Shown here: one piece after another, positions 7,163-62,797 of the stretch
Layout: the number at the start of each line of letters is the position of its first letter
How positions within the stretch are numbered: the stretch's first letter is position 1
Origin: Polaromonas sp. YR568
GTDB lineage: Bacteria; Pseudomonadota; Gammaproteobacteria; Burkholderiales; Burkholderiaceae_C
DNA length: 64,000 nucleotides
Assembly (NCBI RefSeq): GCF_943371715.1
Contig: NZ_CALRVW010000021.1
Coordinates: 2,254-66,253, forward strand
Direction: 5' to 3'
The notes under the pieces: model-generated
What the model saw: only the letters and a program-made list of their open reading frames with translations
Told to the model about the DNA's origin: nothing
The model's database searches: none
Position numbers and translations under genes: made by a program

Positions 7163-7163
7163 G

Positions 7164-13118: not shown

Positions 13119-13186
13119 CAGACGCCAGGCCTCGCTGACACAAACCCGACCCAGCACTGTTTCATAACGGTCTTTTTCATTTTTTG

Positions 13187-13256
13187 ACTGTAAGCGGCGA
13201 GAGGCACTGCCGATTGCCGGAGAAGAATGAAAATTCCCCCTCATTTTCCCGATTGG
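13187..13256 (-). promoter_or_regulatory. Putative -10 (TACAGT) plus conserved upstream box, copy 2
   Basis: TACAGT at 13187-13192; AAAATTCCCCCTCATTTTCCCGATT at 13230, in register with copy 1. Confidence 0.5.
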
Positions 13257-13412
13257 GCAGAGAAAACGACCGATCCCTTGGCCAACGCATGCCGGCGCTG
13301 ATAGCGCAGCTTTTCCCGGCCAGCAAGGCGCCGGACTCTGGCGGTTCCGCGACGATGATTCCGGGTGGTGCATGTCAGGAGCGGCGCCCGGGACGCGTGC
13401 TCACCGTGCAGG

Positions 13413-14615: not shown

Positions 14616-14694
14616 TCTCGGGCGCCAGGTGGAGAGAAGAAGAAGGTATTCGCGTCTTTGATCTATCGCGCAGACAGCGGGTTTTCCAACCGAA

Positions 14695-14769
14695 ACTATA
14701 AGCTTGGGAGACGAACCTGATCACCCAAGAAAGCCTGGAATCATCCCTCTGTTTTCCGGATTCAAAACC
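14695..14769 (-). promoter_or_regulatory. Putative -10 (TATAGT) plus conserved upstream box, copy 3
   Basis: TATAGT at 14695-14700; GGAATCATCCCTCTGTTTTCCGGATTCAAAA at 14737. Confidence 0.6.
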
Positions 14770-14951
14770 GAAATGCCGCGCACCGTCGGAATACGGATTC
14801 ACAGAGGCGAAACGGGGACACCACTCGCCAGGAACGGGGCACCCCACCAACTGCTTCATCCAGTTGAAGCCGAAAGCCGTGCCGAGGGGCTCATCGCACG
14901 GCCGGACCGTGCAGAGTCGGCGTTTCCCGTATTCTTGCCGGCCAGGGAGGG

Positions 14952-16535
14952 TCAGGCTGTCGGCGGTGACCCACCGACCGGTTCCGAGTTTTGCGGCAGG
15001 GACATGAAGAAGCTGGCGCCGCCCTTGTCAGCAGCGATAGCCCAGACGCGACCGCCATGCAGTTGGGCAACACGTTTGACAATCGCCAGACCCAGCCCGG
15101 TACCGGGAAAATCCACCGCCGAATGCAGGCGCTCGAAGGCAGTAAACAGTTTGTCGGTGTAGGCCCTATCGAAACCGGCTCCATTGTCAGAGACAGACAA
15201 AACGATCTCTGCAGGGCCTTCGCCCGGCATGAGGCCCACCCTGATCCAGCTTTGCTCTTTCCGGGAGGTGAACTTCCAGGCGTTGTCGAGCAGACAGGCC
15301 AACGCAATGCACAGCTGGTCCTTGTCGCAGACGAGCGGCAGCGCAGGCTCCATCTCAAGCACCAGGTGCCGGGCCGGCTCGCGCTTGTGCAGCTCGTCCA
15401 TCAGGCGCTGGCACATGGGGACCAGGTCCACCCTTTGCGGCGCCATGGGCATGCTGGGCAAATAGGTCAGGGTGCGCAAGTCATCGATCAGTCTGGCCAG
15501 CTGGAGGCTGCTCGCCTGAATGCGCGAGAGGTAATGCTGGCCTTGCGCATCGAGCGCTGCACCGTGGCGCTCTGCCAGGGTGGCGGCAAATCCGTCAATG
15601 ACATGCAGTGGTGCCTTCAGGTCGTGCAGCATCGCGCTTGTGAACGCCTTCAGTTCACCCTGGCTGCTCTGCAGTTCAGCGGTGCACTGCGCGATGCGCA
15701 TCTCAAGCTCTTCATTGAGCCTGGACAGATGGGCATCGGCAAGGTGGCGCGCGCCAACGTCGGTCACGCTGACCAGCACGGCCGGCCGCAGCGCCCACTG
15801 CACGCTGGAGCAGGCCAGCTCAACAAGCATGAGCTCGCCGTCGGCCTTCTTCTGGGTGCACAGCCGCATTTCCTGCTCGAAGTCACCCGGCGGCAGGGAG
15901 TCCAGCAGGGAGGCCCCGTCACCCTCGGGAAAAAGCGATTCGACGAAAAGCCCCACCAGCGCCTCCGGGGCCACGCCATACACGGCAGCCGCCGCGTTGT
16001 TGACTGCCAGCATCTGCCGCGAGCCGGTATCGAACAACCACATCGCCTGGGGGTGGGCATCGAACAGGATCTGATTGCAGGACTCGCTGTAGCGCAGCGA
16101 ACGCGAGGCCTGATGGATGGTGCTGACATCCTTGAGTGTGACCAGCGCGCCGTCGTCATGTTGGCGCAGGCCGTAGTCGACCCACTGGTTCTCAAACGCA
16201 TGCCAGACGACAAAGTTGTGGGTTCCCGTTTCCAGCAGCGCCTGCTCGGTGGCGCCGCGGTGCTCATCTGCGATTTCTTCAGGTACCGCCTCCCAGAAAT
16301 CAGCACCCCGGAGATTGCCGAGCACGGAGTGCATGAGCGACTGGGCACAACTGTTCAAGGCCACTATCCGGCCGGCACTGTCCAGCAGGACAATCCCGTC
16401 AGATGACAGGTCGAGGCCGGCCTGCAAGGCCTCTGCGCTTGCAGCCGCCTGTCCGGCAGAGAACCCGGGAAGCGACGCCCGCCTGCTTCCCCTCCACGAC
16501 TTCAGCCATTTCTTGAAAAGGGTGAGCGGAGCCAA
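14952..16535 (-). CDS. PAS-PAS sensor histidine kinase
   Basis: Two PAS-like regions, H-box HDLKAPL, N-box LDNAWKF, DNGAGFD, GTGLGLA. Confidence 0.92.
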   Translation of the reverse strand: MAPLTLFKKWLKSWRGSRRASLPGFSAGQAAASAEALQAGLDLSSDGIVLLDSAGRIVALNSCAQSLMHSVLGNLRGADFWEAVPEEIADEHRGATEQALLETGTHNFVVWHAFENQWVDYGLRQHDDGALVTLKDVSTIHQASRSLRYSESCNQILFDAHPQAMWLFDTGSRQMLAVNNAAAAVYGVAPEALVGLFVESLFPEGDGASLLDSLPPGDFEQEMRLCTQKKADGELMLVELACSSVQWALRPAVLVSVTDVGARHLADAHLSRLNEELEMRIAQCTAELQSSQGELKAFTSAMLHDLKAPLHVIDGFAATLAERHGAALDAQGQHYLSRIQASSLQLARLIDDLRTLTYLPSMPMAPQRVDLVPMCQRLMDELHKREPARHLVLEMEPALPLVCDKDQLCIALACLLDNAWKFTSRKEQSWIRVGLMPGEGPAEIVLSVSDNGAGFDRAYTDKLFTAFERLHSAVDFPGTGLGLAIVKRVAQLHGGRVWAIAADKGGASFFMSLPQNSEPVGGSPPTA

Positions 16536-16730
16536 GACCAGGCTTCTTCAAACGCTGGGGTAACGCAGACCTGTTGCTTCGTTCCAGGAATGCCTGCCCA
16601 CGATGAAATCGATTGATTCGGGCCCGGGGACGGGCATCCACCCCAACCGCAGACGCCGTCCTGGCCAGGATTTACCTGGGACAGGAGAGCGAAGGTAGGC
16701 CTTCATGTATCGACAGGTCCGGGCGGAGTC

Positions 16731-17372
16731 CTAGCGCCACTTGCGGTTGGCCACCAGCAGTGCCGTGACGTACCCATGCAGCCAGTCGAAGTTGATCGGC
16801 TTCTCAAGGTAGTAGGAGTTGGGGGGCAGGCCGCCTCTTTCCATGATGGACTCGCGGGGCAAGCCGCTGATCACCAGGATCTGCATGGCCAGCAGCTGCT
16901 GGTTGCGCTTGAGGGCGCGCAGCATTTCCATGCCGTCCACGCCGGGCATGTTCAGGTCGGTGATCAAGAGGTCCGGGCGCATGCTGGCAATGTCCATCAG
17001 GGCCTCGAGGGCAGACGGCATGAAGCTGCAGTCCACCGCCATGTCCCATTCGTCAAAGTGGGCCTTGTAAAGCTCGCAGGTGGCCTCGTCGTCTTCGACC
17101 ACCAGCACGCTCAGGCGATTGCGTGGATCCGCGTCCACCTGGGCACGTTGCGGACTGTTTTTCTGCAAATAGGCATTGATGGCTCGCAGGGAAAGCCGGC
17201 GGTGGCCTCCCAGGGTTTTCCAGGCCTCGATCTCGCCCTTCTCGACCAGTGACTGAACGGTGGCGACCGACAAGCCCAGCAGTTTGGCGGCATAGGTGGT
17301 TCCGCAATAGTCATCGCTGGAAAAGTCGCTCACAGTGATGGCGTTTTCAAAGGTCTGGGGTTCGCGGGGCAT
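16731..17372 (-). CDS. Excisionase-like (HTH_17/MerR-type) DNA-binding domain fused to a receiver domain
   Basis: YCGTTYAAKLLGLSVATVQSLVEKGEIEAWKTLGGHRR followed by REC (VVEDD, TDLNMPGVDG, KP). Confidence 0.9.
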   Translation of the reverse strand: MPREPQTFENAITVSDFSSDDYCGTTYAAKLLGLSVATVQSLVEKGEIEAWKTLGGHRRLSLRAINAYLQKNSPQRAQVDADPRNRLSVLVVEDDEATCELYKAHFDEWDMAVDCSFMPSALEALMDIASMRPDLLITDLNMPGVDGMEMLRALKRNQQLLAMQILVISGLPRESIMERGGLPPNSYYLEKPINFDWLHGYVTALLVANRKWR

Positions 17373-17400
17373 AAAAAGGGCCTAACAAAAATTACATCTG

Positions 17401-17437
17401 CAATTTAAACAATTTCATGAATTTAATCAATTGGATT
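17401..17437. repeat. Four AATT-core direct repeats with 9-bp period in an AT-rich promoter
   Basis: AATT at 17402, 17411, 17420 and 17429 (AATT-TAAA-C, AATT-TCAT-G, AATT-TAAT-C, AATT-GGAT-T). Confidence 0.7.
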
Positions 17438-17488
17438 TATTAACTATTAATTCATACACATTTTTTACAACTGGCCCCTGTGCCGCCT

Positions 17489-20400
17489 TCAAGCGGGGGC
17501 CCCGCTGCCGGGCAGGGTGAAAAAGAAGGTGGCCCCCTTGCCGGGTTCCGCCTGCGCCCAGACCTTGCCGCCATGGCGTCCAATCACCCGGCTGACAGTG
17601 GCCAGCCCCACACCGGTTCCCGGAAACTCGGTCACCGCATGCAGGCGCTGAAAAGTATTGAAGAGCTTGTCAGCATAAGCCATGTCAAAGCCCGCGCCGT
17701 TGTCCTGAACAAAAAACACCGCCAACCCGGCGGCGTCAATCGTGCGCCCGACGCGGATATCGGTATGGGCCTGCCCGGAAGAAAATTTCCAGGCATTGCC
17801 GAGCAGGTTTTCCATCACCACGTGGATCAAACGCCCGTCGCCCTGGGCCTGCAAGTCCTCTTCGATGGTGATGCGGGCCACGCGCTCCGGATTGCGCCCC
17901 TGGCATTCGCCGGTTATTTCCCGCGCCATCACGCTCAAGTCCACCGTTTCATGGCGCAACTGCATGCGCGAAACCTGCGCCAGGGACAACAGATCCTCGA
18001 TCAACCGCCCCATCTGGGCCACACCCGCATGGATGCGCGACAGGTAGTGCTGGACTTTGGCGTTCGGGCTGGCGGCGCTGAGCTGCTTGGCCAGCAGCCG
18101 GCTGAAACCGTCCACCGTGTTCAAGGGTGAACGCAGGTCATGCGAAACCGAGTAGGAAAAGGCTTCGAGTTCCTGGTTGGACAGGCGCAGGGCTGCTTCA
18201 ATGTCCTTGATTTCCGTCACGTCGGCATCAATGCCGACCCAGAACAGCACCTTGGCCTGATCGTCCAGCACCGGGGAAGCCCGGTAAGACATGGTGTGGT
18301 AGGTGCCATCCGCCGCACGCAGCCGCCGCATCCCGACGTAGGAGGTCAGGTTCTCGCGGGACATCTTCCATCTGGCGGACATGTCAGCGAGGTCGTCCGG
18401 GTGCACCACCGCGGTCCACTTGTAGCCCATCCAGTCCGCCGGCGTCCCACCCATCAACTCGTACCACTTGCGGTTGAAGTAGGTCACCCTGCCGTCGACG
18501 TCAACATTCCAGATGATCTGCGGGGCCTGCTCGGCCAGCGCCCGGAACAGGGCCTCCTGCCGCGCCAGGGCGGCGGTCCTTTCCACGACTTTTTCTTCCA
18601 GCCCCTGGTTGAGCCGCTGGACCTGCTCAAAAAGCTGGGTGTTTTCAATCGCGATGGACGCCAGTTGCGCGAGCTCGACACCCACATACTGGTCCTGCAA
18701 TGTGAACTCGCCATCGTACTTGTCGCTCAATTGCAGCAGCCCGATGTTCTCGCCACTCTGGCCGGTCAGCGGCACCGCCAGCCAGCCCCGCATGGACGGC
18801 GCTGCCCCGGCCTCATCGCCAGCACTGACCCAGCGCGGGTCTGCCTCCAGCGCGGACTGGGTCAACCGCATGGGCCGGTTGGTTTCGCAGACGACGGTAT
18901 CCAGGCCACAGGCATGGGTCAGTCGCACCAGATCGCGACAGTGGGCATATTTGTCCGAGTGCGACACGGCGTTGACAGTCCGTGCCTGCTCTCCGGAGAC
19001 CGTCAGGCTCACCACGGCCTGGTGGGCGCCCACCACGGCCCGGACCTGGTCCACGGTTTCCTGCAGGGTTGCCTCGACGGTGCGGTGGCGCGTGATCGCG
19101 TGGGTCGCGTCGGCGGCACGCTGCAGCGTGAACAGATAGTCCTGTACTTCCTTTTCGGCCCTGACCTGTGCGGTGATGTCCAGCGCGACCGCGAAACGCG
19201 CATCCCGGCCCATGTAGGTGATGGCCCGGGCCACGGTCTCCACCGGAAATTCCACACCGTCCTTGCGCAGGTGCAGCCACCGGCTCGGCTGGCCGGTGAC
19301 GCCCTGGGCAAGATGCTGCCGCAACCGGGCCTGCTCCCCCTCGGGCCGGATATCGAAGAGCGTCAGCTGCAAAAACTCTTCCTTTGAATAACCATAGTTC
19401 GCGATCGCCGCCTCGTTGACCGCAAGAAACCGGGAGGTCTCGGTATCGACGATCCACATTGGTACCGGCGCGGCCTTGAACAGGGCCGCATAACGCTGCT
19501 CGCTGTCAAGCATGGCCTGCTCGGCGAGTTTGCGCCGCGTGATGTCGCGCTCGATGGCAACGATGTGGGTGACCCGCCCCTGCGTGTCGGCGATCGGCAC
19601 CATGTCCAGGTCCAGCCAGATCTCTTCACCGCTTTTTTTATAGTTGATCAGCTCCGCGCGTACGGACTCCCCCTTGCGCAGCGCCGACCCGATGCGATCG
19701 AGCTCGGCGCGCTGGGTTCGCCGCCCCTGCAGGAAACGGGGTGACCGGCCCAGCGCTTCCTCGCGGCTGTAGCCGGTGCGCCGCTCGAACGCGTTGTTGA
19801 CAAACACGATGCGCGGTCCTGGCTCATCCAGTTCATCGGCATCGGTGATCAGCACGATGTCATTGAGCCGGGAAATGGCGGTCTCCAGCAACCGGAGTTG
19901 CGCCTGGGATTCATGCTGGTCGGTGATGTCCTGCAGCACCCCCATGAGGCGCACGACCTTGCCGTCCCTCAGCATGGCATGTCCCCGCGTGCGCACCCAG
20001 ATGCGGCGTCCCTGCGCCGTGACCAGCGGCACCTCCATGTCCCAGGGTGTGCCGTCGGCCAGCGCCGCAGCCAGCGTGGCGCGCGCCAGCGGCTGCATTT
20101 CCGGCGGGTGAAAACCGAGCGCCTGTTTCGTCCCCAGCACCACGGACGGATCGAGGTCAAGAATCCGGTACACCTCGGCGGACCAGTAAGGCGTCATGTT
20201 CTCCACGGTGAACTCCCAGCCCCCGATGCGGGCCATCTCACCGGTCTGCTGCAGCAACTCCGTGTGACGGGCCACGGCGAGTTCCGCCTGCTTGCGGGCC
20301 GTGATGTCCTGGACCACGCCGGCACGCCACACGACCTGGCCGCTGCTGTCGGCATGCGACTCCCCGAGCTGGTGTATCCAGCGGATCTGGCCGTCCACGG

Positions 20401-51021: not shown

Positions 51022-51507
51022 ATGGGCATTTTTATGAAAGAGCACGACATCTACGTCGGCAGCCTGCAGGAGAAACTGAACCTGCGGTTTGCACCGTCTC
51101 TGGGCACCAAGGAGCTGCATGGCGGGCTAGACGAAATGGTGGAGCTGCAAAAAGAATTCGAGATCTTCAAGTTAGGCAGAAGCTTCGCAACCAGTATTGC
51201 GGCATTAAACCTGACGGGGCTCTCGAATGCGGAGACGAAGAATCGCTTTCAGCGCTACCTCACCAGTTTGAGAAAAGTGAAGTCCAATGTGGCCACGAAA
51301 AGCGGCGATGCAGCCATCGTGGACGCATTGATCCGGAATCTGGCCGCGAAAAAACCACTGCCGGTTTACTTTGAACTGCACGACCTCAATGCCTCCAAAG
51401 AAGCCGGTCGCGTCCTGATCACCGAAAGAGGTCGTCCGCTCTTTTATATGAAACAGGATTACCTCGTTGTCTCGTTGCCGCTCGGGCTGGATTCCAAGGC
51501 CAAATAG
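51022..51507 (+). CDS. Hypothetical protein, 161 aa
   Basis: GAGGAG RBS, protein-like composition, 9 nt before the next gene; no family recognised. Confidence 0.75.
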   Translation: MGIFMKEHDIYVGSLQEKLNLRFAPSLGTKELHGGLDEMVELQKEFEIFKLGRSFATSIAALNLTGLSNAETKNRFQRYLTSLRKVKSNVATKSGDAAIVDALIRNLAAKKPLPVYFELHDLNASKEAGRVLITERGRPLFYMKQDYLVVSLPLGLDSKAK

Positions 51508-51516
51508 CCGTCAGCA

Positions 51517-52218
51517 ATGCAGCATGGAAGAAGCCCACTGGCGACCGGTGTAGTGCCCCGTGCTTCACCTCGGTTCGCGGGCTTGTGCTCGGATATCGAG
51601 CGTTACTACACAGCCAAGATCGGGCTTTACGGGACCAGTCCACTGGGAGTGGACTGGTCTTGTGAACCTACACAGAAACTGCGATTTATCCAAGTCCTGA
51701 AGGTCTGCGACTTCGATTCGCCATTTTCTCTCGCCGATTTGGGCTGCGGCTATGGTGCACTGCTGGGATTTCTGGCCGAGCGATTCCATGACAAACAAGT
51801 GCGCTACAAGGGCATCGACCTGTCTCCCGCCATGATTGTTCAGGCGAGCCGGTTGTGGGGCAGGAGGACGGATACCGAGTTTACGGTTGGCAATGAACTG
51901 AGCGGCCTCTCTGACTACACTGTCGCCAGCGGCATCTTCAACGTAAAACTTCACCAGCCTGAAATCCGGTGGAGACGATTTGTTCAGGCCACATTGGCCC
52001 ATATGCATGCCCATAGCCGGCGTGGCTTCGCAGTCAACTTTCTGGCCCCGCTCACGGACACCGAGAAAACCCGTCCGGAGCTATATCGGGCTGAGCCAGA
52101 GCTGTGGTGCGACTATTGCGAGCGAGCGCTGGGTGCAGATGTCACGCTGCTGACGGGCTACGGAATGCGGGAATACACCTTGCTTGTGCGACATCGCGCC
52201 AGCTTGCCCGCGCGCTAG
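51517..52218 (+). CDS. Class I SAM-dependent methyltransferase
   Basis: LADLGCGYG, YKGIDLSPAM, DYTVASGIFN. Confidence 0.88.
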   Translation: MQHGRSPLATGVVPRASPRFAGLCSDIERYYTAKIGLYGTSPLGVDWSCEPTQKLRFIQVLKVCDFDSPFSLADLGCGYGALLGFLAERFHDKQVRYKGIDLSPAMIVQASRLWGRRTDTEFTVGNELSGLSDYTVASGIFNVKLHQPEIRWRRFVQATLAHMHAHSRRGFAVNFLAPLTDTEKTRPELYRAEPELWCDYCERALGADVTLLTGYGMREYTLLVRHRASLPAR

Positions 52219-55200
52219 TCGCCGCTGAGTTGCACGATGTAGGCCTCTTCACGCAGCAAGGCCGCTTCACAAATTTTGGCGCCGGTCATCCCAATCAGCT
52301 CCCGAGCTTGCCCAAAAATGACCTCGGCGTCGCTCACTCTGTTCTTGACACCGCTCCGCGCCAGGGCACCACCCCAAACGATCAGCGCCCGGCATTCTGT
52401 TACCCGGTTGCTCCGCTGCCGCGAAGTTTCCACAGCCGACTGCGCATCAGCCAGTGATTGCTCAAAATTTCCGGCGCCATACCGGCATTCGGCAAGGCTC
52501 GCCAGGATTTCTGCCTCAAACTCGACGGCAACCTGGGTACTCCTGATCAGCGCCAGCGCCTCGGAAAATTCAAATGCGGCCTTCTCAAAGTTTGCAGCAG
52601 CAGCTTGGGCCAACCCATTGGTCCACAGGTGCGTCGCCCTGGAGTAAGCGTTCCGACTCGTTTGGGCAATGCTAGCCACATGCTCCGCCTGTTCAAGCAC
52701 CAGACCGGTATCTTTCAGGCTCCACGCCAACTCCGCCTTCAGGTGATGCGCCATCTGCCGAATCACCGGATCGTGGCCGGGTTCAATCGACTCAAACAAA
52801 ACCTGCAGGTACCGGCCTGCCTCATCAAAACGCATCATACGGATGAGCAGACGCACCCGGACACCCAGGACCCACTGCTTGATGTCGAAGCCAAAAAATT
52901 CGCGGTCCAGCTTGTCGATACTCGCCGCCCCCCGCAACGCGATGTCATTCGCAGCCAGCCCCTGCTCAAGCAGTCCGGCCCATGTATAGGCATGACTAAG
53001 GGCCGCATTCATCGTTGCAGTACGCCCGATATCACCGTCGTGAACAGTCAGGGCGAGAGCCTTTTTGATGCTCTCCACATACGAGTCTGCCTGGCCTCCA
53101 CCCCCCTGCAATATCCGTCCCTCGGCAAGATACAGCAACTGGATCAGCCGACCATCGACGTCGGTGGCCAGTTCGATGGTTTCACGCACGATGAGTTGCA
53201 CTTCCTCGGGGCTCAATCCTTCGCGCCATCCAAGGTAAACAAACCCGCCTCCAATTTGCACGCGCAATCTGTCCACCTCCGGCGAGCGCGGCTGGTCAAG
53301 CAAAAGCGCACGTGCTTTGCGCCAATGTTTCATGGCCTGGGTTGAATTAGTGGCTCCCAGCCACTTGGCCGCGCGGGCTTCGTGCTGTGCCGCATTCACA
53401 GGCTGGCCAGCCGCCTCGTAGTGGTGCGCAATCAACGCCGCAAATTCGTCCGGTTGCGAGCGGTAGTGGGCTTCGATGGCCACAGCTACCGCCGCATGCA
53501 GCCCGGCACGACGGGCCTTGAGTTGGCTGCTATACGCCACCTCCTGAATAAGGGGGTGGCGAAATGCGAACCTGCGCCCACCGGCAATTTCCCGTAGCAA
53601 CTCCAGCAACTCGGCCTCACACAGGCTGTCAAGTCCGCTTTCAAGCTGATTGGCCAGGTAGACAGCGACCTGCTGCAACACCGGCAACGGGATTTCCTTG
53701 CCAATGACGGCACAAATATGCAGTAAAGCCTTCTGGCTGGAGACAAGGCGATCTATGCGCTCGGCAATAACCGCCTGCACCGTAGGAGGAAGTGCACGCG
53801 CAATCGTTTCGGCGCTGGGTTTTTTGCCATCGGATTGATCCGACAGAATGCCGCTTTCCGAGAGCGAATGAACCAACTCTTCCGCGAAAAATGGATTGCC
53901 GGCACATCGCTCAACAATAGGCAGAAAAGCGTCTCTTGACTCGCCATGACGGCCCAACAATTCAAGCACAAGTTCCTGCGTATCCTCGGCGCTCAACTGC
54001 CCGAGATTCATTTGCTGAAAATGGGGCAGCGTTGCCCAGGGCGCGCGATAGTTGGGGCGGTAATTAAGGAGCAACAAGGTACGCGCCCTTGCGACAGTCT
54101 CCACCAGCACCTGAAGGAATTCCTCGCTTGCTTCGTCCAGCCAGTGCAGATCCTCAAAAACAATGACCGAGATGGACGCTCCGTTGTATGTCGCCAGTTC
54201 GCGCACGATCTCCAGTAACCTGGTGCGCCGCGCTTTGGGAGGCAGCGAGCAAGGCGGCGCATCGGCCGCCGAGACTCCCAAGAATTCGTTCAGAAGCGCC
54301 AGATCGTCGAAAGATGTCGGTCCAATCTCCGACATCCGGCGGGTGATGAGCGCCCTGGCTGTTGCCTGATCGTCCTCTGCGGAAATATCGAAAAAGCAGG
54401 TGCGCATGAGTGCCAACACCGGTTGCAGCGGGGTAGCATGACCGTAAAGAGGCGTGCGCACCTCGTGGACGGTGACGCCCTGCTCGCGGCACCAATGGGC
54501 AAACTCGTGGCCGAGCCGGCTCTTGCCAGTACCCGGAGCCCCTGACAGGCCAATAGCGGAACCAAGCCCCGTGCCGGCCCGGCGCAACGCATCCTGAAGC
54601 ATCAGAACCTCACGCTTGCGGCCCCGGAATGACGAAAGCACCGCCTGATGGAAGTGAACACGCTCAACATCGCTCTTCATCCGCAGCAGTGCATAAATCT
54701 CAACAGGCTCTGCAATTCCCTTGAGATCCTGTACTCCAATGGCACGTACCTCGCAGGCAGGGCGCACGAGTGCAAGACATGCCGCCGTCATGCACACACC
54801 ACCCGGTTCAGCCAACCCAACTACCCGGCTGGCAAGATGAATGGCGCGGCCGTGAACGCCGCCTCCAATATTTGCATCCACTGCCTGCGGATCGGAGGCC
54901 ACCTGCCCCGAATGCAGCCCGACACGAATGGACAGCCCTTGCGGGTGGTTGGTGAATGCCGCCTGCATGGCAAGCGCCGCCTCGCAAGCAAGGCTGGCAT
55001 GTCCCTCAAGTGCACGGGGAACACCAAAAACAGCCATGACTCCATCGCCCAGCGTGCGAACGACGGTGCCGCCAAAATGTTCGATGGCATTGCACATTCG
55101 CGCAACCGCCGGTCTGAAATGTCCCATGGCCTGCTCGGCATCCAAGCCGGCAATTCGCTCCGTGGAACTGACGATATCTGCAAACAGGATAGTCGCCAGT

Positions 55201-55412
55201 TTGAGTTCTCCCCAGTTCGCGGCGGGTGCTGTGACCACCCCAGGCATGATCGCCCGCTTCTGCGCAGCACCGCAACTCCCACAGAATTTGGCCGCAGGTC
55301 CGCATTCGTGGCCACAGGCGACGCAGACTTGCGCCAACCCCATACCGCAATTCTCACAATAGCGGTTGGTCTCGGCGTTGACGGCGGCGCAGGTCGGGCA
55401 ATTCATGACCAA
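52215..55412 (-). CDS. Double zinc ribbon + class III nucleotide cyclase + AAA/STAND-like ATPase + TPR-like protein
   Basis: Four CxxC pairs, LFADIVSST, LGDGVMAVFG, GAPGTGKS Walker A, FEDLHWLD Walker B, GNPFFAEEL, FRHPLIQEVAY. Confidence 0.92.
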   Translation of the reverse strand: MVMNCPTCAAVNAETNRYCENCGMGLAQVCVACGHECGPAAKFCGSCGAAQKRAIMPGVVTAPAANWGELKLATILFADIVSSTERIAGLDAEQAMGHFRPAVARMCNAIEHFGGTVVRTLGDGVMAVFGVPRALEGHASLACEAALAMQAAFTNHPQGLSIRVGLHSGQVASDPQAVDANIGGGVHGRAIHLASRVVGLAEPGGVCMTAACLALVRPACEVRAIGVQDLKGIAEPVEIYALLRMKSDVERVHFHQAVLSSFRGRKREVLMLQDALRRAGTGLGSAIGLSGAPGTGKSRLGHEFAHWCREQGVTVHEVRTPLYGHATPLQPVLALMRTCFFDISAEDDQATARALITRRMSEIGPTSFDDLALLNEFLGVSAADAPPCSLPPKARRTRLLEIVRELATYNGASISVIVFEDLHWLDEASEEFLQVLVETVARARTLLLLNYRPNYRAPWATLPHFQQMNLGQLSAEDTQELVLELLGRHGESRDAFLPIVERCAGNPFFAEELVHSLSESGILSDQSDGKKPSAETIARALPPTVQAVIAERIDRLVSSQKALLHICAVIGKEIPLPVLQQVAVYLANQLESGLDSLCEAELLELLREIAGGRRFAFRHPLIQEVAYSSQLKARRAGLHAAVAVAIEAHYRSQPDEFAALIAHHYEAAGQPVNAAQHEARAAKWLGATNSTQAMKHWRKARALLLDQPRSPEVDRLRVQIGGGFVYLGWREGLSPEEVQLIVRETIELATDVDGRLIQLLYLAEGRILQGGGGQADSYVESIKKALALTVHDGDIGRTATMNAALSHAYTWAGLLEQGLAANDIALRGAASIDKLDREFFGFDIKQWVLGVRVRLLIRMMRFDEAGRYLQVLFESIEPGHDPVIRQMAHHLKAELAWSLKDTGLVLEQAEHVASIAQTSRNAYSRATHLWTNGLAQAAAANFEKAAFEFSEALALIRSTQVAVEFEAEILASLAECRYGAGNFEQSLADAQSAVETSRQRSNRVTECRALIVWGGALARSGVKNRVSDAEVIFGQARELIGMTGAKICEAALLREEAYIVQLSGD

Positions 55413-55431
55413 ATGTTACGCCGCCACGGTT

Positions 55432-56496
55432 TCAGGCGAGCACATTGACCTTTTTCCAGGCACTCTTGACTGCTTCGTGGGTTTCGGAACCCTTGCCATG
55501 TAGCGTCGCCGCAACGATCAGGGTCGCGTGGGCAGCGTCCAGGAAAGTCGCGCGCGCCCTTAACCGGTCGAACCCCTTGAACCAGACGGGCCCCAGTGTT
55601 TCCCAAGAGCGCCCCCCCAGTTTCATCGCAGCCAGGTAAAACGCATGGTTGGCAATACCCGATGCCTTGTGAGCGTCGTCTGTGATCTTGAAACGCTTGT
55701 AGTCTTTAATCTGGTCGTCTTCAGGCCAGGTCATCCTGGTGTTACCAGGGTCCTTCAGCGAACGAATGGCCTTGCCTGCCTGGGGAGCCAGGATGTCCTC
55801 GCCCAGTAACCAGCTAGCCGCCTGCACCTCTTCTCCAGCATGCCATTGTTTGATCATGCTGGCGCACACGTCGGAGAAGGATTCATTCAGCGCACCGGCT
55901 TCACCTTTTAGGGTGGGCGGCTGGCCGGGGACTTGCACCACGCCAAGCCCACCCTTGACCATGTGCTGGCTGATGCCATGAGAAAACTCATGGGCGATGA
56001 TTCCCAGCGAGCCGGCCAGATTGGTGACGTGTTTGCCATCACCGTCGCCTACAAGCATTTGCTCACCGGTCCACATTGCATTGGCGAAGCTGTAGCCATA
56101 GTGAACACTGGCATCGATACGCATCCCCTTGCCATCGACAGAGTCACGGCCCAGCACGTTCGCGAAAAACTGCAGCGCGATGCCAATGTTGTCGTACGCT
56201 TGGTTGGCGATCTGGTCGTGGGAGGGGGGATCGTCCTCGTCACGGAGAATTTTGCCGGGCAAAAAAGTTCGGCCTTGGGCGTCAAACACCTGGCGGTGCA
56301 GAATTTTGGCGCCACGTTTGGTAGCCACTACTTTCCGGCTACTGGCAGCCCCCCGCTGTCCGCGCAACTGGGACGAGTGCTGGAGTTGCTCCATCAACAT
56401 TTCACGGTCCTCGTCCTGCGACGTATTGGCAAAATGCCGCAACATTTTTTTCGGGACAGCAAAGCACACGCATCCATACTTGACGCTCATAAGCAA
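55432..56496 (-). CDS. M4 metallopeptidase, protealysin-like
   Basis: Short propeptide (CFAVPKKML), FANAMWTGEQM..GDGDG, HEFSH, GALNESFSD; no signal peptide. Confidence 0.92.
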   Translation of the reverse strand: MLMSVKYGCVCFAVPKKMLRHFANTSQDEDREMLMEQLQHSSQLRGQRGAASSRKVVATKRGAKILHRQVFDAQGRTFLPGKILRDEDDPPSHDQIANQAYDNIGIALQFFANVLGRDSVDGKGMRIDASVHYGYSFANAMWTGEQMLVGDGDGKHVTNLAGSLGIIAHEFSHGISQHMVKGGLGVVQVPGQPPTLKGEAGALNESFSDVCASMIKQWHAGEEVQAASWLLGEDILAPQAGKAIRSLKDPGNTRMTWPEDDQIKDYKRFKITDDAHKASGIANHAFYLAAMKLGGRSWETLGPVWFKGFDRLRARATFLDAAHATLIVAATLHGKGSETHEAVKSAWKKVNVLA

Positions 56497-56537
56497 CTCC
56501 TGCGACGTTGAGAAACGCGGGTATTTCGGCGCCAGAG

Positions 56538-57197
56538 CTACCAGCGACTGGGCAGCTTCTTGAGCAAGGTGATGCGCCGGATGCCCAGTTCGATGTAGCC
56601 GCCTTTTTCGAGGTCTTTGAGCAGCCGGCTGACCATCTCGCGCGAGGCGCCCACGCGATTGGCAATGTCCTGATGGGTGATGGACTCCAGGGTGGCGCTG
56701 CCGCCGGGTGCCTCGCCCGTGTCTTCCCGACGCTCTTCAAGCAAGGCGACCAGCCGCCCATACACATCGAGCAGCGCCATGTTTCGCGCCGTCTCTGTCG
56801 CAGAGCGGGCCCGGCGTATCACCTGAACCACCAGATTGATTGCAAATTCAGGTTCTTCCACCAGGTGTTCGCTGACATCCGTCCGGCTCAGCACCGCGCA
56901 AGTGCAGGGCTCCAGCGTCATCACCGAGGCAGAGCGTGGCCCACCATCGAGCGACATCTCACCAAAATAGTCGCCCGCATTGACCGTCCCGTAAGTGATT
57001 TCCCGTCCACTTTCGTCCATGGCGAACACCTTGACACTGCCCTTGAGCAGGACAAAGAGGCTGTCGCCGGACTCACCCTCATTGATCAACACCGCGTTTT
57101 TTCGGTAGGTCCGCAACACGCCGCGGCGCGCCAGGGAGCGCAACTCGGGAACCAGTGGCGTGTAAAGGTCTTCGTTGGAAGGAAGTGACGTGCTCAT
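56538..57197 (-). CDS. Crp/Fnr-family cNMP-binding regulator (CRP-like)
   Basis: FGEMSL...PRSASV cAMP pocket; HTH SREMVSR resembling CRP SRETVGR. Confidence 0.93.
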   Translation of the reverse strand: MSTSLPSNEDLYTPLVPELRSLARRGVLRTYRKNAVLINEGESGDSLFVLLKGSVKVFAMDESGREITYGTVNAGDYFGEMSLDGGPRSASVMTLEPCTCAVLSRTDVSEHLVEEPEFAINLVVQVIRRARSATETARNMALLDVYGRLVALLEERREDTGEAPGGSATLESITHQDIANRVGASREMVSRLLKDLEKGGYIELGIRRITLLKKLPSRW

Positions 57198-57262
57198 GAT
57201 GAGCCGTAATCTAGCACGCGGCGGGCTCCCGGTGTGGGCCGCGCAGGGACGACAACCCCTTT

Positions 57263-57919
57263 TCAGTGAATCTGGGCCAGGTGCACAGGTGCCACCGGCG
57301 GCAAGACGGCGACACGGTTCACCAATTCACGCACGCCACTGGAGCCGGTTTTTGCACACAGGCTGCGCACATGGCTGCGGACCGTGGAAACGGCAACCTT
57401 CAGCTGGACGGCAATTTCGGGTGTGCTCAAGCCCCGGCACAAAATGGCCAAAACCTGCTCTTCCGTCTGGGTCAGCCCGTAACTGCGCGCAAAAAAGCCA
57501 AACATGCCGGATTCGCAGACCTCGGAACGCGCAAAAAACAGGGCAATGCGAACATTCCAGGCATCGGCGTCAGGCTTGAGGGGCACGACGGCCAGCGTCA
57601 GGGTCAGCCCACCGCCAGACACATTGATCAGGCTGCGCTTGCCGGCCACCGCCATGCTCAAGGCGTGTTGAAGGGTTCGGCTGTCTGCTGACGTCACGGC
57701 ATGAATCTCCCCATCCAGCCGGTCGAGCACGCGATGGCGACTCAGTTCTGTGCGAGCCACCCTGTTGGCGTGGATGATCCGGCCGTGCTCGCCCACCACT
57801 ATGACGCCGTGGCCCAGCACGTCAACCAGCAAGGACAGCACATCCGGACCTGCGTCCGGACGTTTCGCGTCCAAGGGCAAGGAAGCATCCAGGAATCCGG
57901 CGGTCAACAGATTGTTCAT
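57263..57919 (-). CDS. PAS-like + LuxR-type HTH regulator
   Basis: YGLTQTEEQVL..G...EIA..L.VAVSTVRSHVRSLCAKTG. Confidence 0.88.
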   Translation of the reverse strand: MNNLLTAGFLDASLPLDAKRPDAGPDVLSLLVDVLGHGVIVVGEHGRIIHANRVARTELSRHRVLDRLDGEIHAVTSADSRTLQHALSMAVAGKRSLINVSGGGLTLTLAVVPLKPDADAWNVRIALFFARSEVCESGMFGFFARSYGLTQTEEQVLAILCRGLSTPEIAVQLKVAVSTVRSHVRSLCAKTGSSGVRELVNRVAVLPPVAPVHLAQIH

Positions 57920-57998
57920 CTTCAGGGCTTAGCTGTTACAGGTTGTTAAGCGTATGAAGCCTGCCTGTTTCTGGATAGTGAATATGGGACCTCTTTTT

Positions 57999-58014
57999 TG
58001 TGAACAAAGTCACA
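57999..58014. promoter_or_regulatory. Perfect CRP box TGTGA-N6-TCACA
   Basis: TGTGA ACAAAG TCACA, 80-95 bp upstream of the luxR-crp operon start. Confidence 0.85.
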
Positions 58015-58147
58015 ACTCCATGAAGCGTCACCGTATTCGCAGATCGAATCTGACGGACCCGTATAACCGCCCTATACGCTTTGACCTTTAGAACTCAAAG
58101 CCAGAGATAGAAGTGGGTGCAAACTTTCCAAAAAAAAAACCGCAAGC

Positions 58148-61100
58148 TCAGACCCACGTGTCGAGGATGGCACTGGTTTTAGCCCAGTAGGTCTGCAGCC
58201 TTTCCAGCTGCTGCGGGGCGTTGGCCGGGATCTCGCCGGTTTTTGCCACCAGTTCCAGCTCACTGCACACGGTCTGCATGGCCACGGCGCCGACGTTGCT
58301 GGTAGCGCCTATGAGGGCATGGGTTGCCCACGCCAAGGCGGCAGCGTCGCCGGCACGGATGCTCTCTTCAACGGCGCGCAGGCGCTGGGAGGCATCGGCG
58401 ACAAACAGGCCGATCACCTCGCGCGTCATGGTCAGCGCATCGTCGTCGAATTCCTTGAACTGGGCCAGCCGCTCCAGATCCATCAGCACGGGATCAACTG
58501 CAGGCAAGAGATCGCTTTTGGGCGTCGGCAGCAATGCCTGCGGCCCGGCGGCGGCGCCCTGGCTGCGCACCAGCGGCGCCGTTGCAAATCCACCAGAGCC
58601 TCCCGCAGCGGCCGTCATCATGGGCAGCCACCGCTCCAGCGCCTGGGCCAGCGCGGCGACATGCAGCGGTTTGGTCAGGTAGTCGTCCATGCCCGCCGCC
58701 GTGCAGCGGGCACGGTCTTCGGGGGAGGCGGCCGCGGTCAGCGCAATGATGGGGGGCGCCTTCCCGCCCATCATGGCCTGAATTTGCTGGGTCGCCTGAA
58801 AGCCGTTCATGCGCGGCATGTTGATGTCCATCAGCACCGCACCAAAGCGCCAGCCCGCCCCGTGGGCACGAGCCACGGCCTGCACCGCCTCGCGCCCATC
58901 CAGCGCGGTGGCCGTGTGGTAACCCAGCTTGGCCAGCATGGCGCAGGCCACCTTGAGGTTGACAGCGTTGTCGTCCACCACCAGCAAGGTCAGGTTTTTC
59001 GCAGCTGCCAGGCCTTCGGCGGTGGTTGATTCCGAGGGCAGCTTCTGGATGCCAGGCACCGACAGGCAGCGTGCCAGCGCGTCGAACAATTGGCGCTGCC
59101 GGACGGGCTTGAGCAGCCGCGCCTCGAACAAGCGGGCGGCCTCATGGCCTGGCGGCATGAAACCGGACGTCAGCAGCACCAGCGGTATCCCCCCCAGCGG
59201 CGCCGTGGCCTTGATGACGCGGGAAAGCGCCACGCCATCCATGTCAGGCATGTGCATGTCGGTGATGATGATGTCCGGCAGCACGCCCCCGCTTTGCGCC
59301 AACGCCAGCGCCTGCAAGGCCTGGGCGCCCGACTCGGCGGTAGTCACCTGCATGCCCCACAGCTGGAGCTGTCGCGTGAGGACCCGGACATTGGTGACGT
59401 GGTCGTCCACCACCAGCGCGCGTTTCCCATGGAGGGCGGCCGCATCGACACTTGCAGCCGCAGGCGGCAGTTCGGCCGGCGGTGCCTGGATCGTGAACCA
59501 GAAGGTGGATCCCTTGCCCGGCACGCTGTCCACACCGATGTCGCCGTCCATGAGTTCGACCAGCCGCTTGCATATCGCCAGCCCCAGGCCGGTGCCGCCG
59601 TACTTGCGCGTGGTGGAAGCATCTACCTGAGTGAAGGCCTGGAACAGCGCCCCCACGCGGTCAGGCGGTATGCCTATGCCGGAATCGGACACGCGGAATT
59701 CGACGCGCACCCGGGCCGGGTCATCGGGGTTGGGCAGGGAATGCGCACTCACGGTCACTTCACCTTTTTCCGTGAATTTGACGGCGTTGTTGATCAGGTT
59801 GATCAACACCTGCCGGATCCGCGTCACGTCCCCGGAGACCGCTGCCGGCAGGGCAAGTGAGTCGTTGCCCACGGCTTCCGGCACGTCCACGATCAGTTCC
59901 AGGTTTTTTTCCCGGGCGCGGGGCGCGGCAATGTCGCAGGCCTCCTCGATCGCACTGCGCAGGCTCAGGGGCTCAGACTCCAGGTCCAGCTTGCCGGACT
60001 CGATCTTCGAGAAATCCAGAATATCGTTGATGACGGCCAGCAACTGATCGCTCGACAGGCGGATGGTCTGCAGGTAGTCGCTCTGTTCGTCGTCCAGCGC
60101 GGTCTCGGCGAGCAGGGTACTCATGCCCACCACGCCATTCAGGGGGGTGCGTATCTCGTGGCTCATGGTCGCGAGAAATGCGGCTTTGGCCCGGGCTGCC
60201 TGCAAGGCCTCTTCACGCGAGGCGAGCAGCTCGATCGTGCGCTGCGCCACCCGCTCCTCCAGACGCTCGTTGGCCTCTTCAATCACCCGGGCTTTGGCCT
60301 GCACCTCGGCACGGTAATGCTTCAGCTGCTCGGCGCTGGAGTGCATCACGCGCGAAAGCTCCATGACTTCCCGCAGATGCGTGCCGCTGTCAATGCGCGG
60401 CACTTCACCCCTTCCGAGCTTTTGCGCAGCCACGCTCAGGCGCTTGAGCCGGCGCCCGATGCGGTTGGCAACATAAAACGCCGCGGCCGCCCCGAACAGG
60501 ACCAGCGCGCCAATGAGGGCCAGGGACACCTTCCAGGCACGCGTGATCTCAGCGGTGAAATCGCTCTCCGGTGCGGCCACCACCAGGGTCCAGCGCAAGC
60601 CCGCTGATTCGCCGAAGGGGCGCTGCACCATCAGCAGGGTGCCGTCCTGCAGCGGCAGCCGCTGCAACGCAGTGTTGACGGCCACCGAATCCTCGCGCTT
60701 GCGCGCCTGCTCGCGCTGCAGCGCCGCAAAACTTTCGCGGATCACCGGGTTCGCGCTGTGCTGGGGACTTCGCCGCGCAGACTGCCCCGGCGCGTAGTCG
60801 AACAAGGGGTCCCCGGCAGAGCCGGCAACCAGCCACCCCTGCTCGTCCACCACGAAAGCCGCCCCGCGTGCGCTGATGCGCTGCGTTTGCAGCAGGTCGG
60901 CCAGCCGCTGCAGATACAGGTCCACGCCAAATACGCCTGCGGCGCCGCCGTCTGCGTCGTAAACAGGCTGGGAAAGCGTCACGAACAGTTGCGGTTTCCC
61001 GGGCACCACCTGAATCGGGGAGAACACGCGGCCCTTGGCGACCAGCGCCCCCTGGTACCAGCCCCTGGTGCGGGGCTCGAAATGGGTCTGGGCAACCGCC

Positions 61101-61600
61101 AGGGGGCGGCTGCGGTCGCCGGGCCGGCGCGCAGTGAAGGCCTGAAGACCGGTGTCGGCAGGGGTGCGGAGCTGCACCGTCGTGCCGCTGCTTGCGTGTT
61201 CCACCGAAAAATACTCGCCCCGGCTGTTGCCGTAATACAGGTGGGGCACGTCCGCAGACTGCCTGCCCAGCGCGAACGCCATGGGCTCAAAGGCCGCGCT
61301 CTGGCGCAGCCAGTCCCGGGCCTGCTCGGTCTGGGTGGTGCTCAGGCGCTCGGGAAACAGGCCGTTCAGGATGGTGTGCGCCTGCCCCAAATGGGCTTCC
61401 GTTCCTGACTGCACCCTGGCCGCTACGTTGAACAAAATTCCCCCGGCCAGCTCCTGCACCGCCTGGTCACTGCTGCGCGCCATGAGCCAGGCTACCAGCC
61501 CCGCCGGCACGAGCGCAAACACCAGCAAACTGGCCACCAGGATCCGGCTCAGGGAAACCGTTTTTCCTGGCATGGTGCTGCGGTCTGCCGACACACCCAC
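58148..61600 (-). CDS. Hybrid sensor kinase (Cache-HAMP-HisKA-HATPase-REC-REC-Hpt)
   Basis: [25 protein letters not shown], two REC domains, C-terminal HALIG Hpt. Confidence 0.94.
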
Positions 61601-61603: not shown

Positions 61604-62722
61604 TCAGGCGAGCGCCAGGCCCAGCAACTCGGCGGCATCGATGGCGGCCGTGCGGCCGGGCAGCGATACCAGCGCTCGCCCCCCGGTGTTCACCGCGCCC
61701 GTGACGCCGCGCAGCATGGCCACACTGGCTGCAATCTGCCAGCCCGCCTTGTGCGCCTGCTTTTGCAAAAGCAGGGTGGCGCTCACCGTGTCGCCCACCG
61801 GCAGTATCTGCACACTGCCATGCAAAGGGTCTTCGAGCCTGGCCAGCGCCACAGGGCCGCTGTTCAAGGCCACACTGACATCAAAACGCGGCAGCCTTTG
61901 CCCGGGAAAATGGGTATTGAGAAACTGCTGCACCCGTTTGGCGGCGTCAATCAGGCCCAGGGCGGCCCGGGCGGCGCGCAACCCATGGTTGACCGAGGTC
62001 GTATCCGTGCTGTCGACAAAAACGACCAGCAGGCCCTCGCCGACAAACTGCATGTGGCGCGCGCCAAACAAATGCACGGTGTCGCCGGCGTTGTTGTAGA
62101 ACTGGCGCACCACATCGCTCAACTCCGTGCTGGAGAGTTTTTCGGCCAGCCCCGCGTAGTTGAGAACGTCGACGAACAGGACGGTGGCATTCGAGAACTT
62201 TTCGTCCTGGCTCGATGCATCCGCCGCAGGCCACTTGTCGCTCAGCTCGGAGGCCAGTTTTTTCTCATACAGCCGGGCCAGGTGCTGCTTCTGGTCTTCC
62301 AGGGCAGCCTGCACCGCGGCTTCTACCGCCATGACCTGGACGGCCGCCTGCATGTGTCGCTTGTTCAGCTGGGCCGCCGCAGCCTCGCGCAACTCGCCGG
62401 GGCGGAAGGGTTTGGTGATGTAGTCGTCGGCGCCGCTGGTCATGCCGATGCGCATATGGGCCCGCTCCTGCAGCGAGGTCAGCAGGACCACAGGCGTGGC
62501 CAGGATGGCCGGATCGGCACGCAGGGCCTGCAGCATCGCAAACCCGTCCATCACCGGCATCTGCACATCGCTGATGACCAGGTCCGGCCTGTTCTGGCGC
62601 ACCAGCTCGAGCCCGGACAGACCGTTGTCGGCCGACAACACGTCGTACCCGTCTTTCCGGAGCACCGATGCCACCAGCGTGCGCGTGGCGGCATCGTCTT
62701 CCATGACCACTATCAGAGGCAT
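61604..62722 (-). CDS. Response regulator with degenerate class III cyclase output domain
   Basis: REC (MEDD, SDVQMPVMDG, KPF), then TVLFVDV, FVGEG, GDTVSATLLL (catalytic N and R absent). Confidence 0.85.
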   Translation of the reverse strand: MPLIVVMEDDAATRTLVASVLRKDGYDVLSADNGLSGLELVRQNRPDLVISDVQMPVMDGFAMLQALRADPAILATPVVLLTSLQERAHMRIGMTSGADDYITKPFRPGELREAAAAQLNKRHMQAAVQVMAVEAAVQAALEDQKQHLARLYEKKLASELSDKWPAADASSQDEKFSNATVLFVDVLNYAGLAEKLSSTELSDVVRQFYNNAGDTVHLFGARHMQFVGEGLLVVFVDSTDTTSVNHGLRAARAALGLIDAAKRVQQFLNTHFPGQRLPRFDVSVALNSGPVALARLEDPLHGSVQILPVGDTVSATLLLQKQAHKAGWQIAASVAMLRGVTGAVNTGGRALVSLPGRTAAIDAAELLGLALA

Positions 62723-62797
62723 TTTTATCCCAAGCATTGACCGAAACGCGATCAACCCCCTAGCTTACACAATTAGTTACCGAGTAAGAAGTTTTGA

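Follow-up and report, generated by a model that had tools for sequence, protein, structure and literature searches.

Organization of the luxR-crp-M4-cyclase cluster

A 64,000-nt stretch of the Polaromonas sp. YR568 genome (the window) was analyzed together with the whole genome (4,093,820 bp, 99.9%-complete). The longest open reading frames (ORFs) in one part of the window form a row of four co-oriented minus-strand genes, which encode a LuxR-type regulator, a Crp-family receptor of cyclic nucleoside monophosphates (cNMPs), a protealysin-like zinc protease of family M4, and a protein that joins zinc ribbons, a class III nucleotide cyclase, a STAND ATPase, and a TPR-like sensor. The intergenic distances are 65, 41, and 19 nt, and a perfect CRP-type palindrome stands ahead of luxR. 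The features of this cluster are as follows.

57999..58014, no strand assigned: perfect palindrome TGTGA-N6-TCACA, TGTGAACAAAGTCACA, centered about 88 nt upstream of the luxR ATG
57975..57986, minus strand: conserved block, CATATTCACTAT, located 12 nt downstream of the box; it may be a −10 region or a further protein site
57919-57263, minus strand: LuxR-type regulator (PAS-LuxR), 218 aa, with a GerE helix-turn-helix (HTH) at the C terminus and a weak PAS-like N terminus
57197-56538, minus strand: Crp-family cNMP receptor, 219 aa, with a GE/RS pocket and an R-E-x-x-x-R recognition helix
56496-55432 (ORF; from the ATG, 56490), minus strand: protealysin-like M4 zinc protease, 354-aa ORF, 352 aa from the ATG
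55412-52215 (ORF; likelier ATG, 55406), minus strand: zinc-ribbon/class III cyclase/STAND ATPase/TPR protein, 1065 aa
55269..55406, minus strand: double zinc ribbon (DZR) at the N terminus of that protein, DZR E 7.8e-8
54678..55217, minus strand: class III cyclase homology domain, Guanylate_cyc PF00211 E 1.6e-16
53523..54629, minus strand: STAND nucleotide-binding oligomerization module with P-loop, helical, and winged-helix parts; AAA_16
52227..53522, minus strand: TPR-like alpha-solenoid sensor, its C-terminal third the fastest-evolving
58132..58158, minus strand: terminator-like hairpin followed by T9, after the upstream kinase gene, dividing the kinase operon from the luxR promoter

The likelier ATG starts of the protease gene (56490, 7 nt behind AGGAG) and of the cyclase gene (55406) change the last two gaps to 47 and 25 nt. 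The hairpin with its T9 run lies immediately upstream of the CRP-type box, and no convincing terminator was found inside the cluster, where the eight terminator-like matches against 6.8 expected are at the chance level. The short gaps on one strand, the hairpin before the box, and this absence of a convincing internal terminator are the layout of an operon, and the four genes are probably co-transcribed. The cyclase gene converges with a downstream methyltransferase gene; their stop codons overlap by four bases (52215-52218), which leaves no room for a terminator between them.

In the product of the last gene, the zinc-ribbon residues C5, C8, C19, and C22 are invariant in the orthologues. The best PDB match of the cyclase domain was Rv1900c (1YBT), and both metal-binding Asp residues are kept (FADIV and GDG, at least 95% conserved in 38 orthologues). 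This domain is the most conserved part of the protein; divergence is fastest in the zinc ribbon and in the last third of the sensor, at its C terminus. The Walker A (GAPGTGKS) and Walker B (FEDLHWLD) motifs are intact, and GxPGxGKS and EDLHWLD are invariant in the orthologues. A profile search of the TPR-like C terminus against the PDB gave Pins/LGN (E 8.5e-8). An AlphaFold2 (AF2) model was confident from residue 260 on (pLDDT 80-96) and consisted of a P-loop/helical/winged-helix module followed by an alpha-solenoid of about 20 helices. When this model was searched with Foldseek, the top match was 6MFV, a STAND-TPR protein (E 4.9e-12), followed by plant NLRs, Apaf-1, and ORC/Cdc6; MalT domain III (1HZ4) matched with a TM score of 0.76 on the target, and the sensor also resembled the Rap and LGN TPRs. 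According to these models, the product of the last gene is a true STAND NTPase that bears a cyclase at its N terminus and a MalT-like sensor.

The protease matched Peptidase_M4 and M4_C in Pfam, and its best PDB match was the protealysin precursor 2VQX (E 1.8e-53), in an alignment that starts at query residue 13 and chain residue 9 and covers the short propeptide. The motifs HEFSH and NESFSD are present; H169, E170, and H173 of the HEXXH motif, the third ligand E205, and the catalytic H276 are invariant. Neither a signal peptide nor a Pfam match to an FTP or PepSY prodomain was found. On this sequence evidence, the protease belongs to the protealysin-like group of M4. Protealysin has been described as an intracellular enzyme that cleaves FtsZ and RecA and whose inhibitor, emfourin, is encoded beside it; its expression in Escherichia coli lowers ultraviolet (UV) survival (PMC9505478). 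No match to an emfourin gene (PF20242) was found in the cluster or in the whole genome. A general association of protealysin-like proteases (PLPs) with cyclases was considered and rejected: the flanks of ten PLPs from other Burkholderiales families (28-39% identity), three from Thermoanaerobaculia, and one distant PLP from Polaromonas contained no relatives of the cyclase, Crp, LuxR, methyltransferase, or orf161 (a conserved orphan gene described below). Therefore, the pairing with a cyclase is specific to the subfamily of the window's protease.

Crp consists of a cNMP-binding beta-barrel and a C-terminal Crp-type HTH, the architecture of its family, as indicated by the Pfam matches PF00027 (cNMP_binding, E 8e-23), PF13545 (HTH_Crp_2, E 9e-14), and PF00325 (Crp, E 3e-11); the nearest NCBIfam model, E. 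coli CRP, gave 115 bits, a score under the cut-off. Both phosphate-binding pairs, Gly-Glu and Arg-Ser (FGEMSL...PRSASV), are present, and the recognition helix reads SREMVSR. Pocket and helix are invariant in 39 orthologues, apart from a change of G to A in some, and the TS pair of the C-helix is AT in the window protein. Among the 14 cNMP-binding genes of the genome, one other paralogue shares the SREMVSR helix and has His for the phosphate-binding Arg; it lies on contig C6 (about 139100-139800) and has relatives of 36-38% identity in Polaromonas genomes without the cluster.

The LuxR protein gave a GerE match (E 2.2e-9) and a PAS_4 match below the cut-off (E 0.0026). Since no autoinducer-binding domain was matched, it was classed as a LuxR-family HTH protein, and a quorum-sensing LuxR was rejected. 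A preliminary description of this locus, written from the DNA letters, had reported the four genes with their gaps and perfect box, the cAMP pocket and R-E-R helix of Crp, and a last gene combining zinc ribbons, a class III cyclase, an intact P-loop ATPase of the STAND type, and a TPR-like sensor. All of this was recovered in the ORFs and the motif scan, the 39 Crp orthologues, the Pfam matches, the invariant Walker motifs, and the AF2 and Foldseek results.

Conservation of the cluster and of its CRP-type box

A neighborhood census by pattern scan, with one genome per species and an alignment of protease homologues as the query, returned 43 loci. In about 40 of them, (LuxR)-Crp-M4-cyclase genes on one strand converge on genes for a methyltransferase and orf161. 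These loci belong to Polaromonas, Ramlibacter, Rhodoferax, Caenimonas, Hylemonella, and further Burkholderiales, and the identities of protease and cyclase fall to 44-47% across them. The preliminary description had made its proposal depend on co-conservation, and the genes are indeed conserved together across five genera. Because the whole region is syntenic in the family and occupies the same slot, part of this co-conservation is vertical. Linkage within the genus goes further: among 81 sampled Polaromonas genomes, the cyclase was found in 11 and an M4 protease in 11; the two genes are neighbors in 9 genomes, and a contig end separates them in 1. Apart from one protease-less genome, both were either present or absent. 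The protease and the cyclase were thus gained and lost together within Polaromonas, and this linkage exceeds synteny.

Several genomes depart from the common arrangement. In G015 (locus L053, G015:C74 5810-9686), crp is followed directly by the STAND cyclase gene after a gap of about 146 nt; M4 is missing, and the methyltransferase gene and orf161 are kept. G044 has only a distant PLP (39%) in an unrelated context. The complete genome G092 keeps hydrolase-LuxR-Crp and the box and lacks the protease, the cyclase, the methyltransferase, and orf161; two DUF6065 genes also lie in its luxR-crp region. The insert present in JS666-type Polaromonas loci (see below) encodes a canonical Lys/Asp adenylate cyclase-TPR protein, a PAP2 protein, and a protein without an assigned function; despite this insertion and a relocation of the kinase pair, the protease and cyclase genes remain adjacent there. 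In L052 (G092, 5457-17800) and L038 (4316-9146), luxR-crp is followed on the opposite strand by genes for a 642-aa protein, a PAP2 protein, and a 593-aa cyclase, the last being a canonical adenylate cyclase (Lys/Asp, Asn, Arg) with TPR repeats. The luxR gene is present in most loci and missing in Rhodoferax and in two Ramlibacter-type loci. A 197-aa ORF with an Hpt-like HTLKALASNVGA motif, another phosphorelay link, occupies the luxR position in Rhodoferax (L018, 8638-9231).

Trees were built with FastTree and carry local supports only. The Crp tree follows the genera, and the protease tree splits into two deep clades, each with members from Polaromonas and Ramlibacter. The window's protease nests among those of Ramlibacter and Rhodoferax, and its Crp sits with Polaromonas loci bearing the other protease type. 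The trees of the cyclase, orf161, and the methyltransferase are further, different mosaics at odds with the protease tree. An exchange of the cassette as a single unit was rejected on these grounds; the trees suggest lateral exchange or recombination at the locus rather than the transfer of a clean cassette.

The box, TGTGAACAAAGTCACA, is the sole perfect TGTGA-N6-TCACA in the window (1 against 0.06 expected) and one of two in the genome. The other is located on contig C23 (57465-57480), between a GntR-like regulator gene and mdh. A GT[GTA]A...TCAC element was found 85-104 nt upstream of the luxR start in every luxR-bearing locus. The 12 other loci of the window's own Polaromonas subclade have TGTGA-N6-TCACA at the same place with at most one mismatch, and its spacer letters vary. 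Because the palindrome arms are kept while the spacer varies, the box appears to be a selected protein site; it is phylogenetically footprinted, as the alignment of these loci indicates. The spacer differs between two groups of loci by a one-base indel inside the CRP-type site, the reader helix being unchanged. In one Polaromonas locus (L033, about 8350-8420), approximately nine tandem GTGTGAA heptamers, a microsatellite of CRP half-sites, lie directly upstream of the box.

An alignment of 37 upstream regions demonstrated that caTAtTcaC, in the conserved block downstream of the box, is kept across all genera. A σ70 promoter scan found no promoter in the luxR upstream region. No further site with two or fewer mismatches was found in any intergenic region of the cluster.

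Neighboring genes

The genes that accompany the cluster on either side are listed below.

51022..51507, plus strand: orf161, conserved orphan, first gene of the convergent pair accompanying the cyclase gene
51517..52218, plus strand: S-adenosylmethionine-dependent methyltransferase, second gene of the convergent pair
58148..61600, minus strand: hybrid histidine kinase (dCache, HisKA, HATPase, two REC, Hpt), upstream operon
61604..62755, minus strand: response regulator carrying a fused, degenerate cyclase domain (GEG; Ser for Asn; Leu for Arg)

The orf161 gene is present in nearly all cluster loci and absent where the cyclase is absent. Its product is soluble, with 96% identity among close relatives and 52-86% across genera, and had no match in Pfam, NCBIfam, PADLOC, or PDB sequences. 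An emfourin-like inhibitor or another known fold was considered for it and rejected, as no family matched, the AF2 model had a pLDDT of 68, and no Foldseek match was better than E 1.4. Nor was orf161 similar to a small ORF downstream of a Thermoanaerobaculia PLP.

In the REC-cyclase, Glu replaces the second metal-binding Asp, and the transition-state Asn and Arg are lost. Its cyclase domain could be a pseudo-cyclase with a regulatory role, possibly by forming a heterodimer with the STAND cyclase. The kinase/REC-cyclase pair is linked to the cluster in Polaromonas and some Ramlibacter and stands on the other flank in JS666-type loci. In all loci the chromosomal slot is the same, between an alpha/beta-hydrolase gene and phhA-hppD, and the flanks encode phenylalanine hydroxylase, HPPD, and an Lrp-type regulator. 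Eight cyclase-domain genes are present in the whole genome.

A candidate local cNMP circuit

We give an even chance to the interpretation that the cluster is a local cNMP circuit, in which the STAND-gated cyclase would feed a cNMP, probably cAMP, to Crp acting on the operon promoter, with the protease as a co-expressed output. The TPR-like sensor of the MalT-like STAND NTPase would bind an intracellular ligand, and ATP-dependent oligomerization would bring the N-terminal class III cyclase domains together, so that the cNMP would be made. Class III cyclase domains are active only as dimers; from this property of the family, we infer that oligomerization would activate the cyclase. Crp, encoded two genes upstream of the cyclase, would bind the cNMP and the box in the luxR promoter and would thereby feed back on luxR-crp-M4-cyclase. 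The PAS-LuxR protein would probably relay the state of the circuit to other promoters. The protealysin-like protease, presumably made as a cytoplasmic zymogen, would be the enzymatic output co-expressed with the sensor and would cleave its putative substrates. The luxR-crp pair is the stable core of these loci, and the cyclases encoded next to it differ; they include the STAND cyclase, the REC-pseudo-cyclase, and, in relatives, the canonical adenylate cyclase-TPR protein. Since relatives carry a canonical adenylate cyclase beside luxR-crp, it is likely that Crp reads cAMP.

A number of observations weigh against such a circuit, several of them at the box. The preliminary description had taken the TGTGA-N6-TCACA palindrome as the site read by this Crp. 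Its place upstream of luxR is upheld by the footprint, but the 6-bp spacer is not general, since most genera have 5 bp. In loci beyond the Polaromonas subclade of the window, the orthologous element reads GTGAATTTCTCAC or nearly so; this 5-bp-spacer group includes JS666-type Polaromonas, Ramlibacter, Caenimonas, and G092 (upstream regions of luxR in L013-L030, L036-L042, L045-L047, and L052, compared with 57999-58014 of the window). Although a spacer of 5 bp misfits the family's TGA-N6-TCA geometry, both spacer groups have an identical Crp recognition helix. In the 5-bp-spacer loci, the promoter-proximal TCACA keeps its register with the conserved CATATTCAC block that lies 12 nt further downstream. 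Among CAP sites, the length of the spacer is known to vary, and there are classes with 6 bp and with 8 bp (PMC10187061). The box center would fall near −32.5, −38.5, or −41.5 by the choice of −10 hexamer, and a more distal TAnnCT candidate for the −10 would place it near −64.5. Because its placement relative to the start site is ambiguous, both activation and repression by Crp are possible. No box was found before crp in loci without luxR, or upstream of M4 in JS666-type loci, where 5.7 kb of opposite-strand genes lie between crp and M4-cyclase.

The cyclase itself adds to these objections. Arg (RTLGDG) and Gly (GGG), conserved in 38 orthologues, sit at the positions of the adenylate cyclase Lys and Asp; His stands in place of the transition-state Asn (IHLASR), as in 1YBT, with the transition-state Arg present; and the AF2 model is poor for this domain. 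The specificity pair is neither the canonical Lys/Asp of adenylate cyclases nor the Glu/Cys of guanylate cyclases. As it is non-canonical, the product is not predictable from it, and a nucleotide other than cAMP or cGMP could be made. The mycobacterial cyclase Rv0386 has non-canonical substrate-specifying residues as well. In addition, seven cyclase-domain genes besides that of the STAND cyclase are present in the genome. The word "self-contained", which the preliminary description had applied to the circuit, has to be given up in view of the 8 cyclase-domain and 14 cNMP-binding genes and of the persistence of luxR-crp without protease and STAND cyclase beside a canonical adenylate cyclase. 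It is also contradicted by two travelling pairs that the description had missed, the hybrid kinase/REC-pseudo-cyclase and the orf161-methyltransferase genes.

The same gene numbers speak for a rival reading, in which the four genes would be neighbors without a dedicated circuit. The box would then be nothing more than one site in a wider cAMP regulon supplied by other cyclases, peptides or amino acids would be scavenged by the protease, and the STAND cyclase would be one of many inputs to the cNMP pool. This is in keeping with the second perfect box upstream of mdh, a typical catabolite-control target, with luxR-crp existing apart from protease and cyclase, with the amino acid genes of the flanks (phenylalanine hydroxylase, HPPD, and the Lrp-type regulator), and with the partly vertical co-conservation of a syntenic region. 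We consider it unlikely, however, because presence and absence of protease and cyclase are linked in the 81 genomes, their adjacency survives the move of the kinase pair and the 5.7-kb insertion, and the presence of only two perfect boxes in the genome argues against a large classical regulon. The ten to thirteen more distant PLPs without such neighbors also mark the pairing as a property of the subfamily.

That pairing could alternatively reflect a peptide- or protein-processing loop. M4 would cleave a precursor, possibly the orf161 product or some other protein and perhaps after methylation by the neighboring methyltransferase, and the cleavage product would be sensed as a ligand by the TPRs of the STAND cyclase; in this way, proteolysis would lead to a cNMP/Crp transcriptional response, comparable to TPR peptide receptors. 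The M4 and cyclase genes are near-obligate neighbors with gaps of 19-30 nt, orf161 and the methyltransferase co-occur with the cyclase and are absent where it is absent, and the sensor resembles the peptide-binding Rap and LGN TPRs. The TOMM kinase/cyclase fusion TIGR03903 is a homologue of the cyclase-ATPase-TPR body (247 bits, below the cut-off). Metallopeptidase-based peptide-processing systems coupled to TPR-bearing AP-ATPases, sometimes with CRP-like factors, have been described (Kaur et al. 2020, PMC7159879). On the other hand, no small, fast-diverging precursor gene is visible, and no enzymes for ribosomally synthesized and post-translationally modified peptides are encoded nearby. The orf161 product shows strong conservation instead of variability and lacks leader-like and repeat features, and G015 keeps Crp, cyclase, methyltransferase, and orf161 without the protease. 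A processing loop is therefore improbable in our estimation.

A conflict module for abortive infection or interbacterial competition, at which the preliminary description had hinted, was judged quite improbable. The STAND protein would sense an invader protein, a burst of cNMP would raise the protease via Crp, and the protease would damage housekeeping proteins, either in its own host or in rival cells. Defense commonly involves STAND NTPases that carry an effector domain at the N terminus, and STAND-TPR proteins, NLRs, and Apaf-1 are the nearest matches of the fold. Intracellular protealysin cleaves FtsZ and RecA and reduces UV survival when expressed in E. coli (PMC9505478), and the genome has no emfourin gene. 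The cluster is patchy in the genus (about 1 in 8 species), the two deep protease clades each occur in Polaromonas and Ramlibacter, the Crp tree disagrees with those of the protease, the cyclase, and orf161, and the C terminus of the sensor evolves fastest. However, PADLOC returned only weak domain-level matches (PycC, 36 bits; the cNMP domain of PycTIR) and no effector architecture, so that Pycsar or another catalogued defense system was rejected. The cluster also occupies a constant, syntenic chromosomal slot (alpha/beta hydrolase to phhA-hppD) and not a defense island, and contains neither a toxin-immunity pair nor secretion genes. A transcriptional relay would be slow for abortive infection, and the protease can be lost while the cyclase stays, as in G015.

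Apart from the local cNMP circuit that we prefer, a doubtful proposal is that the protease and the STAND cyclase form a functional pair without a described counterpart, either because peptides made by the protease are the TPR ligand or because the sensing of an invader unleashes a protease that has no inhibitor. If the peptide version were true, intracellular proteolysis would be turned into a cNMP/Crp transcriptional state. If the invader version were true, a cNMP/Crp relay would free a cytoplasmic thermolysin-type protease as a growth-arrest effector.

Known systems of similar design were compared with the cluster, the nearest being the gcyB-gcyC-cgrA operon and the mycobacterial Rv0386-type cyclases. 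The gcyB-gcyC-cgrA operon of Rhodospirillum centenum likewise combines cyclase components with a Crp-family receptor behind a perfect TGTGA-N6-TCACA promoter and forms a local cNMP feedback loop, in which cGMP-CgrA controls cyst formation (PMC10187061, PMC4681086). It differs from the Polaromonas cluster in that its cyclase carries no STAND ATPase; protease, LuxR, orf161, and methyltransferase are missing; the nucleotide is cGMP; and the host is an alphaproteobacterium with a large developmental regulon. In Sinorhizobium meliloti, the dedicated class III cyclases CyaD1, CyaD2, and CyaK similarly feed Clr, a Crp-like regulator of a small local target set (CyaD1/CyaD2/CyaK-Clr-smc02178; PMC5498481, PMC4222275, PMC10127613), but these are CHASE2 membrane cyclases, the Clr site is HGTYHC-N4-GRWACA, and there is no protease or STAND module.

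The mycobacterial Rv0386, Rv1358, and Rv2488c cyclases share the N-terminal class III cyclase, the AAA_16/STAND ATPase, the TPRs, and a LuxR-type HTH in the pathway (10.1101/2024.03.06.583649). In the present cluster, in contrast, the LuxR HTH belongs to a separate PAS-linked protein, a double zinc ribbon precedes the cyclase, and Crp and M4 are encoded in the operon. The TIGR03903 fusions align with the cyclase-ATPase-TPR body over residues 68-1044, but the score is far under the cut-off of 706, a zinc ribbon stands where the fusions have their N-terminal kinase, and the surroundings contain no genes for TOMM biosynthesis. The protealysin-emfourin operon of Serratia proteamaculans encodes a full-length homologue, including the short propeptide, which has no signal peptide and is reported to be intracellular (PMC9505478); in the Polaromonas genome analyzed here, emfourin is missing, the STAND cyclase gene lies downstream, and the regulators lie upstream. 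The systems of Kaur, Burroughs, Iyer, and Aravind (2020) also contain a zinc metallopeptidase and a TPR-bearing STAND ATPase, sometimes with a CRP-like cNMP-sensing factor (PMC7159879). Unlike the present cluster, they are actinobacterial, have another zincin peptidase, a small variable precursor, and often a radical-SAM protein, and have no ATPase-fused cyclase.

No description of a protealysin-like protease joined with a cyclase or Crp was found in the literature, in agreement with the preliminary description, whose author knew of no characterized system with this composition. The parts and the cyclase-Crp feedback design are known; a protease wired to a STAND cyclase and Crp is an undescribed combination. 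The natural variants (protease-less, cyclase-less, and with 5-bp or 6-bp operators) and the related versions in cultured Polaromonas strains such as JS666, CF318, and A23 make the circuit directly testable. STAND-linked class III cyclases, such as those of the Rv0386 type, are abundant, and here a likely receptor, DNA site, and enzymatic output are found within 6 kb. The locus also supplies a regulatory context, made up of Crp, a footprinted operator, and a sensor cyclase, for the widespread protealysin-like proteases, which have no signal peptides and have mostly been investigated for their part in virulence or invasion.

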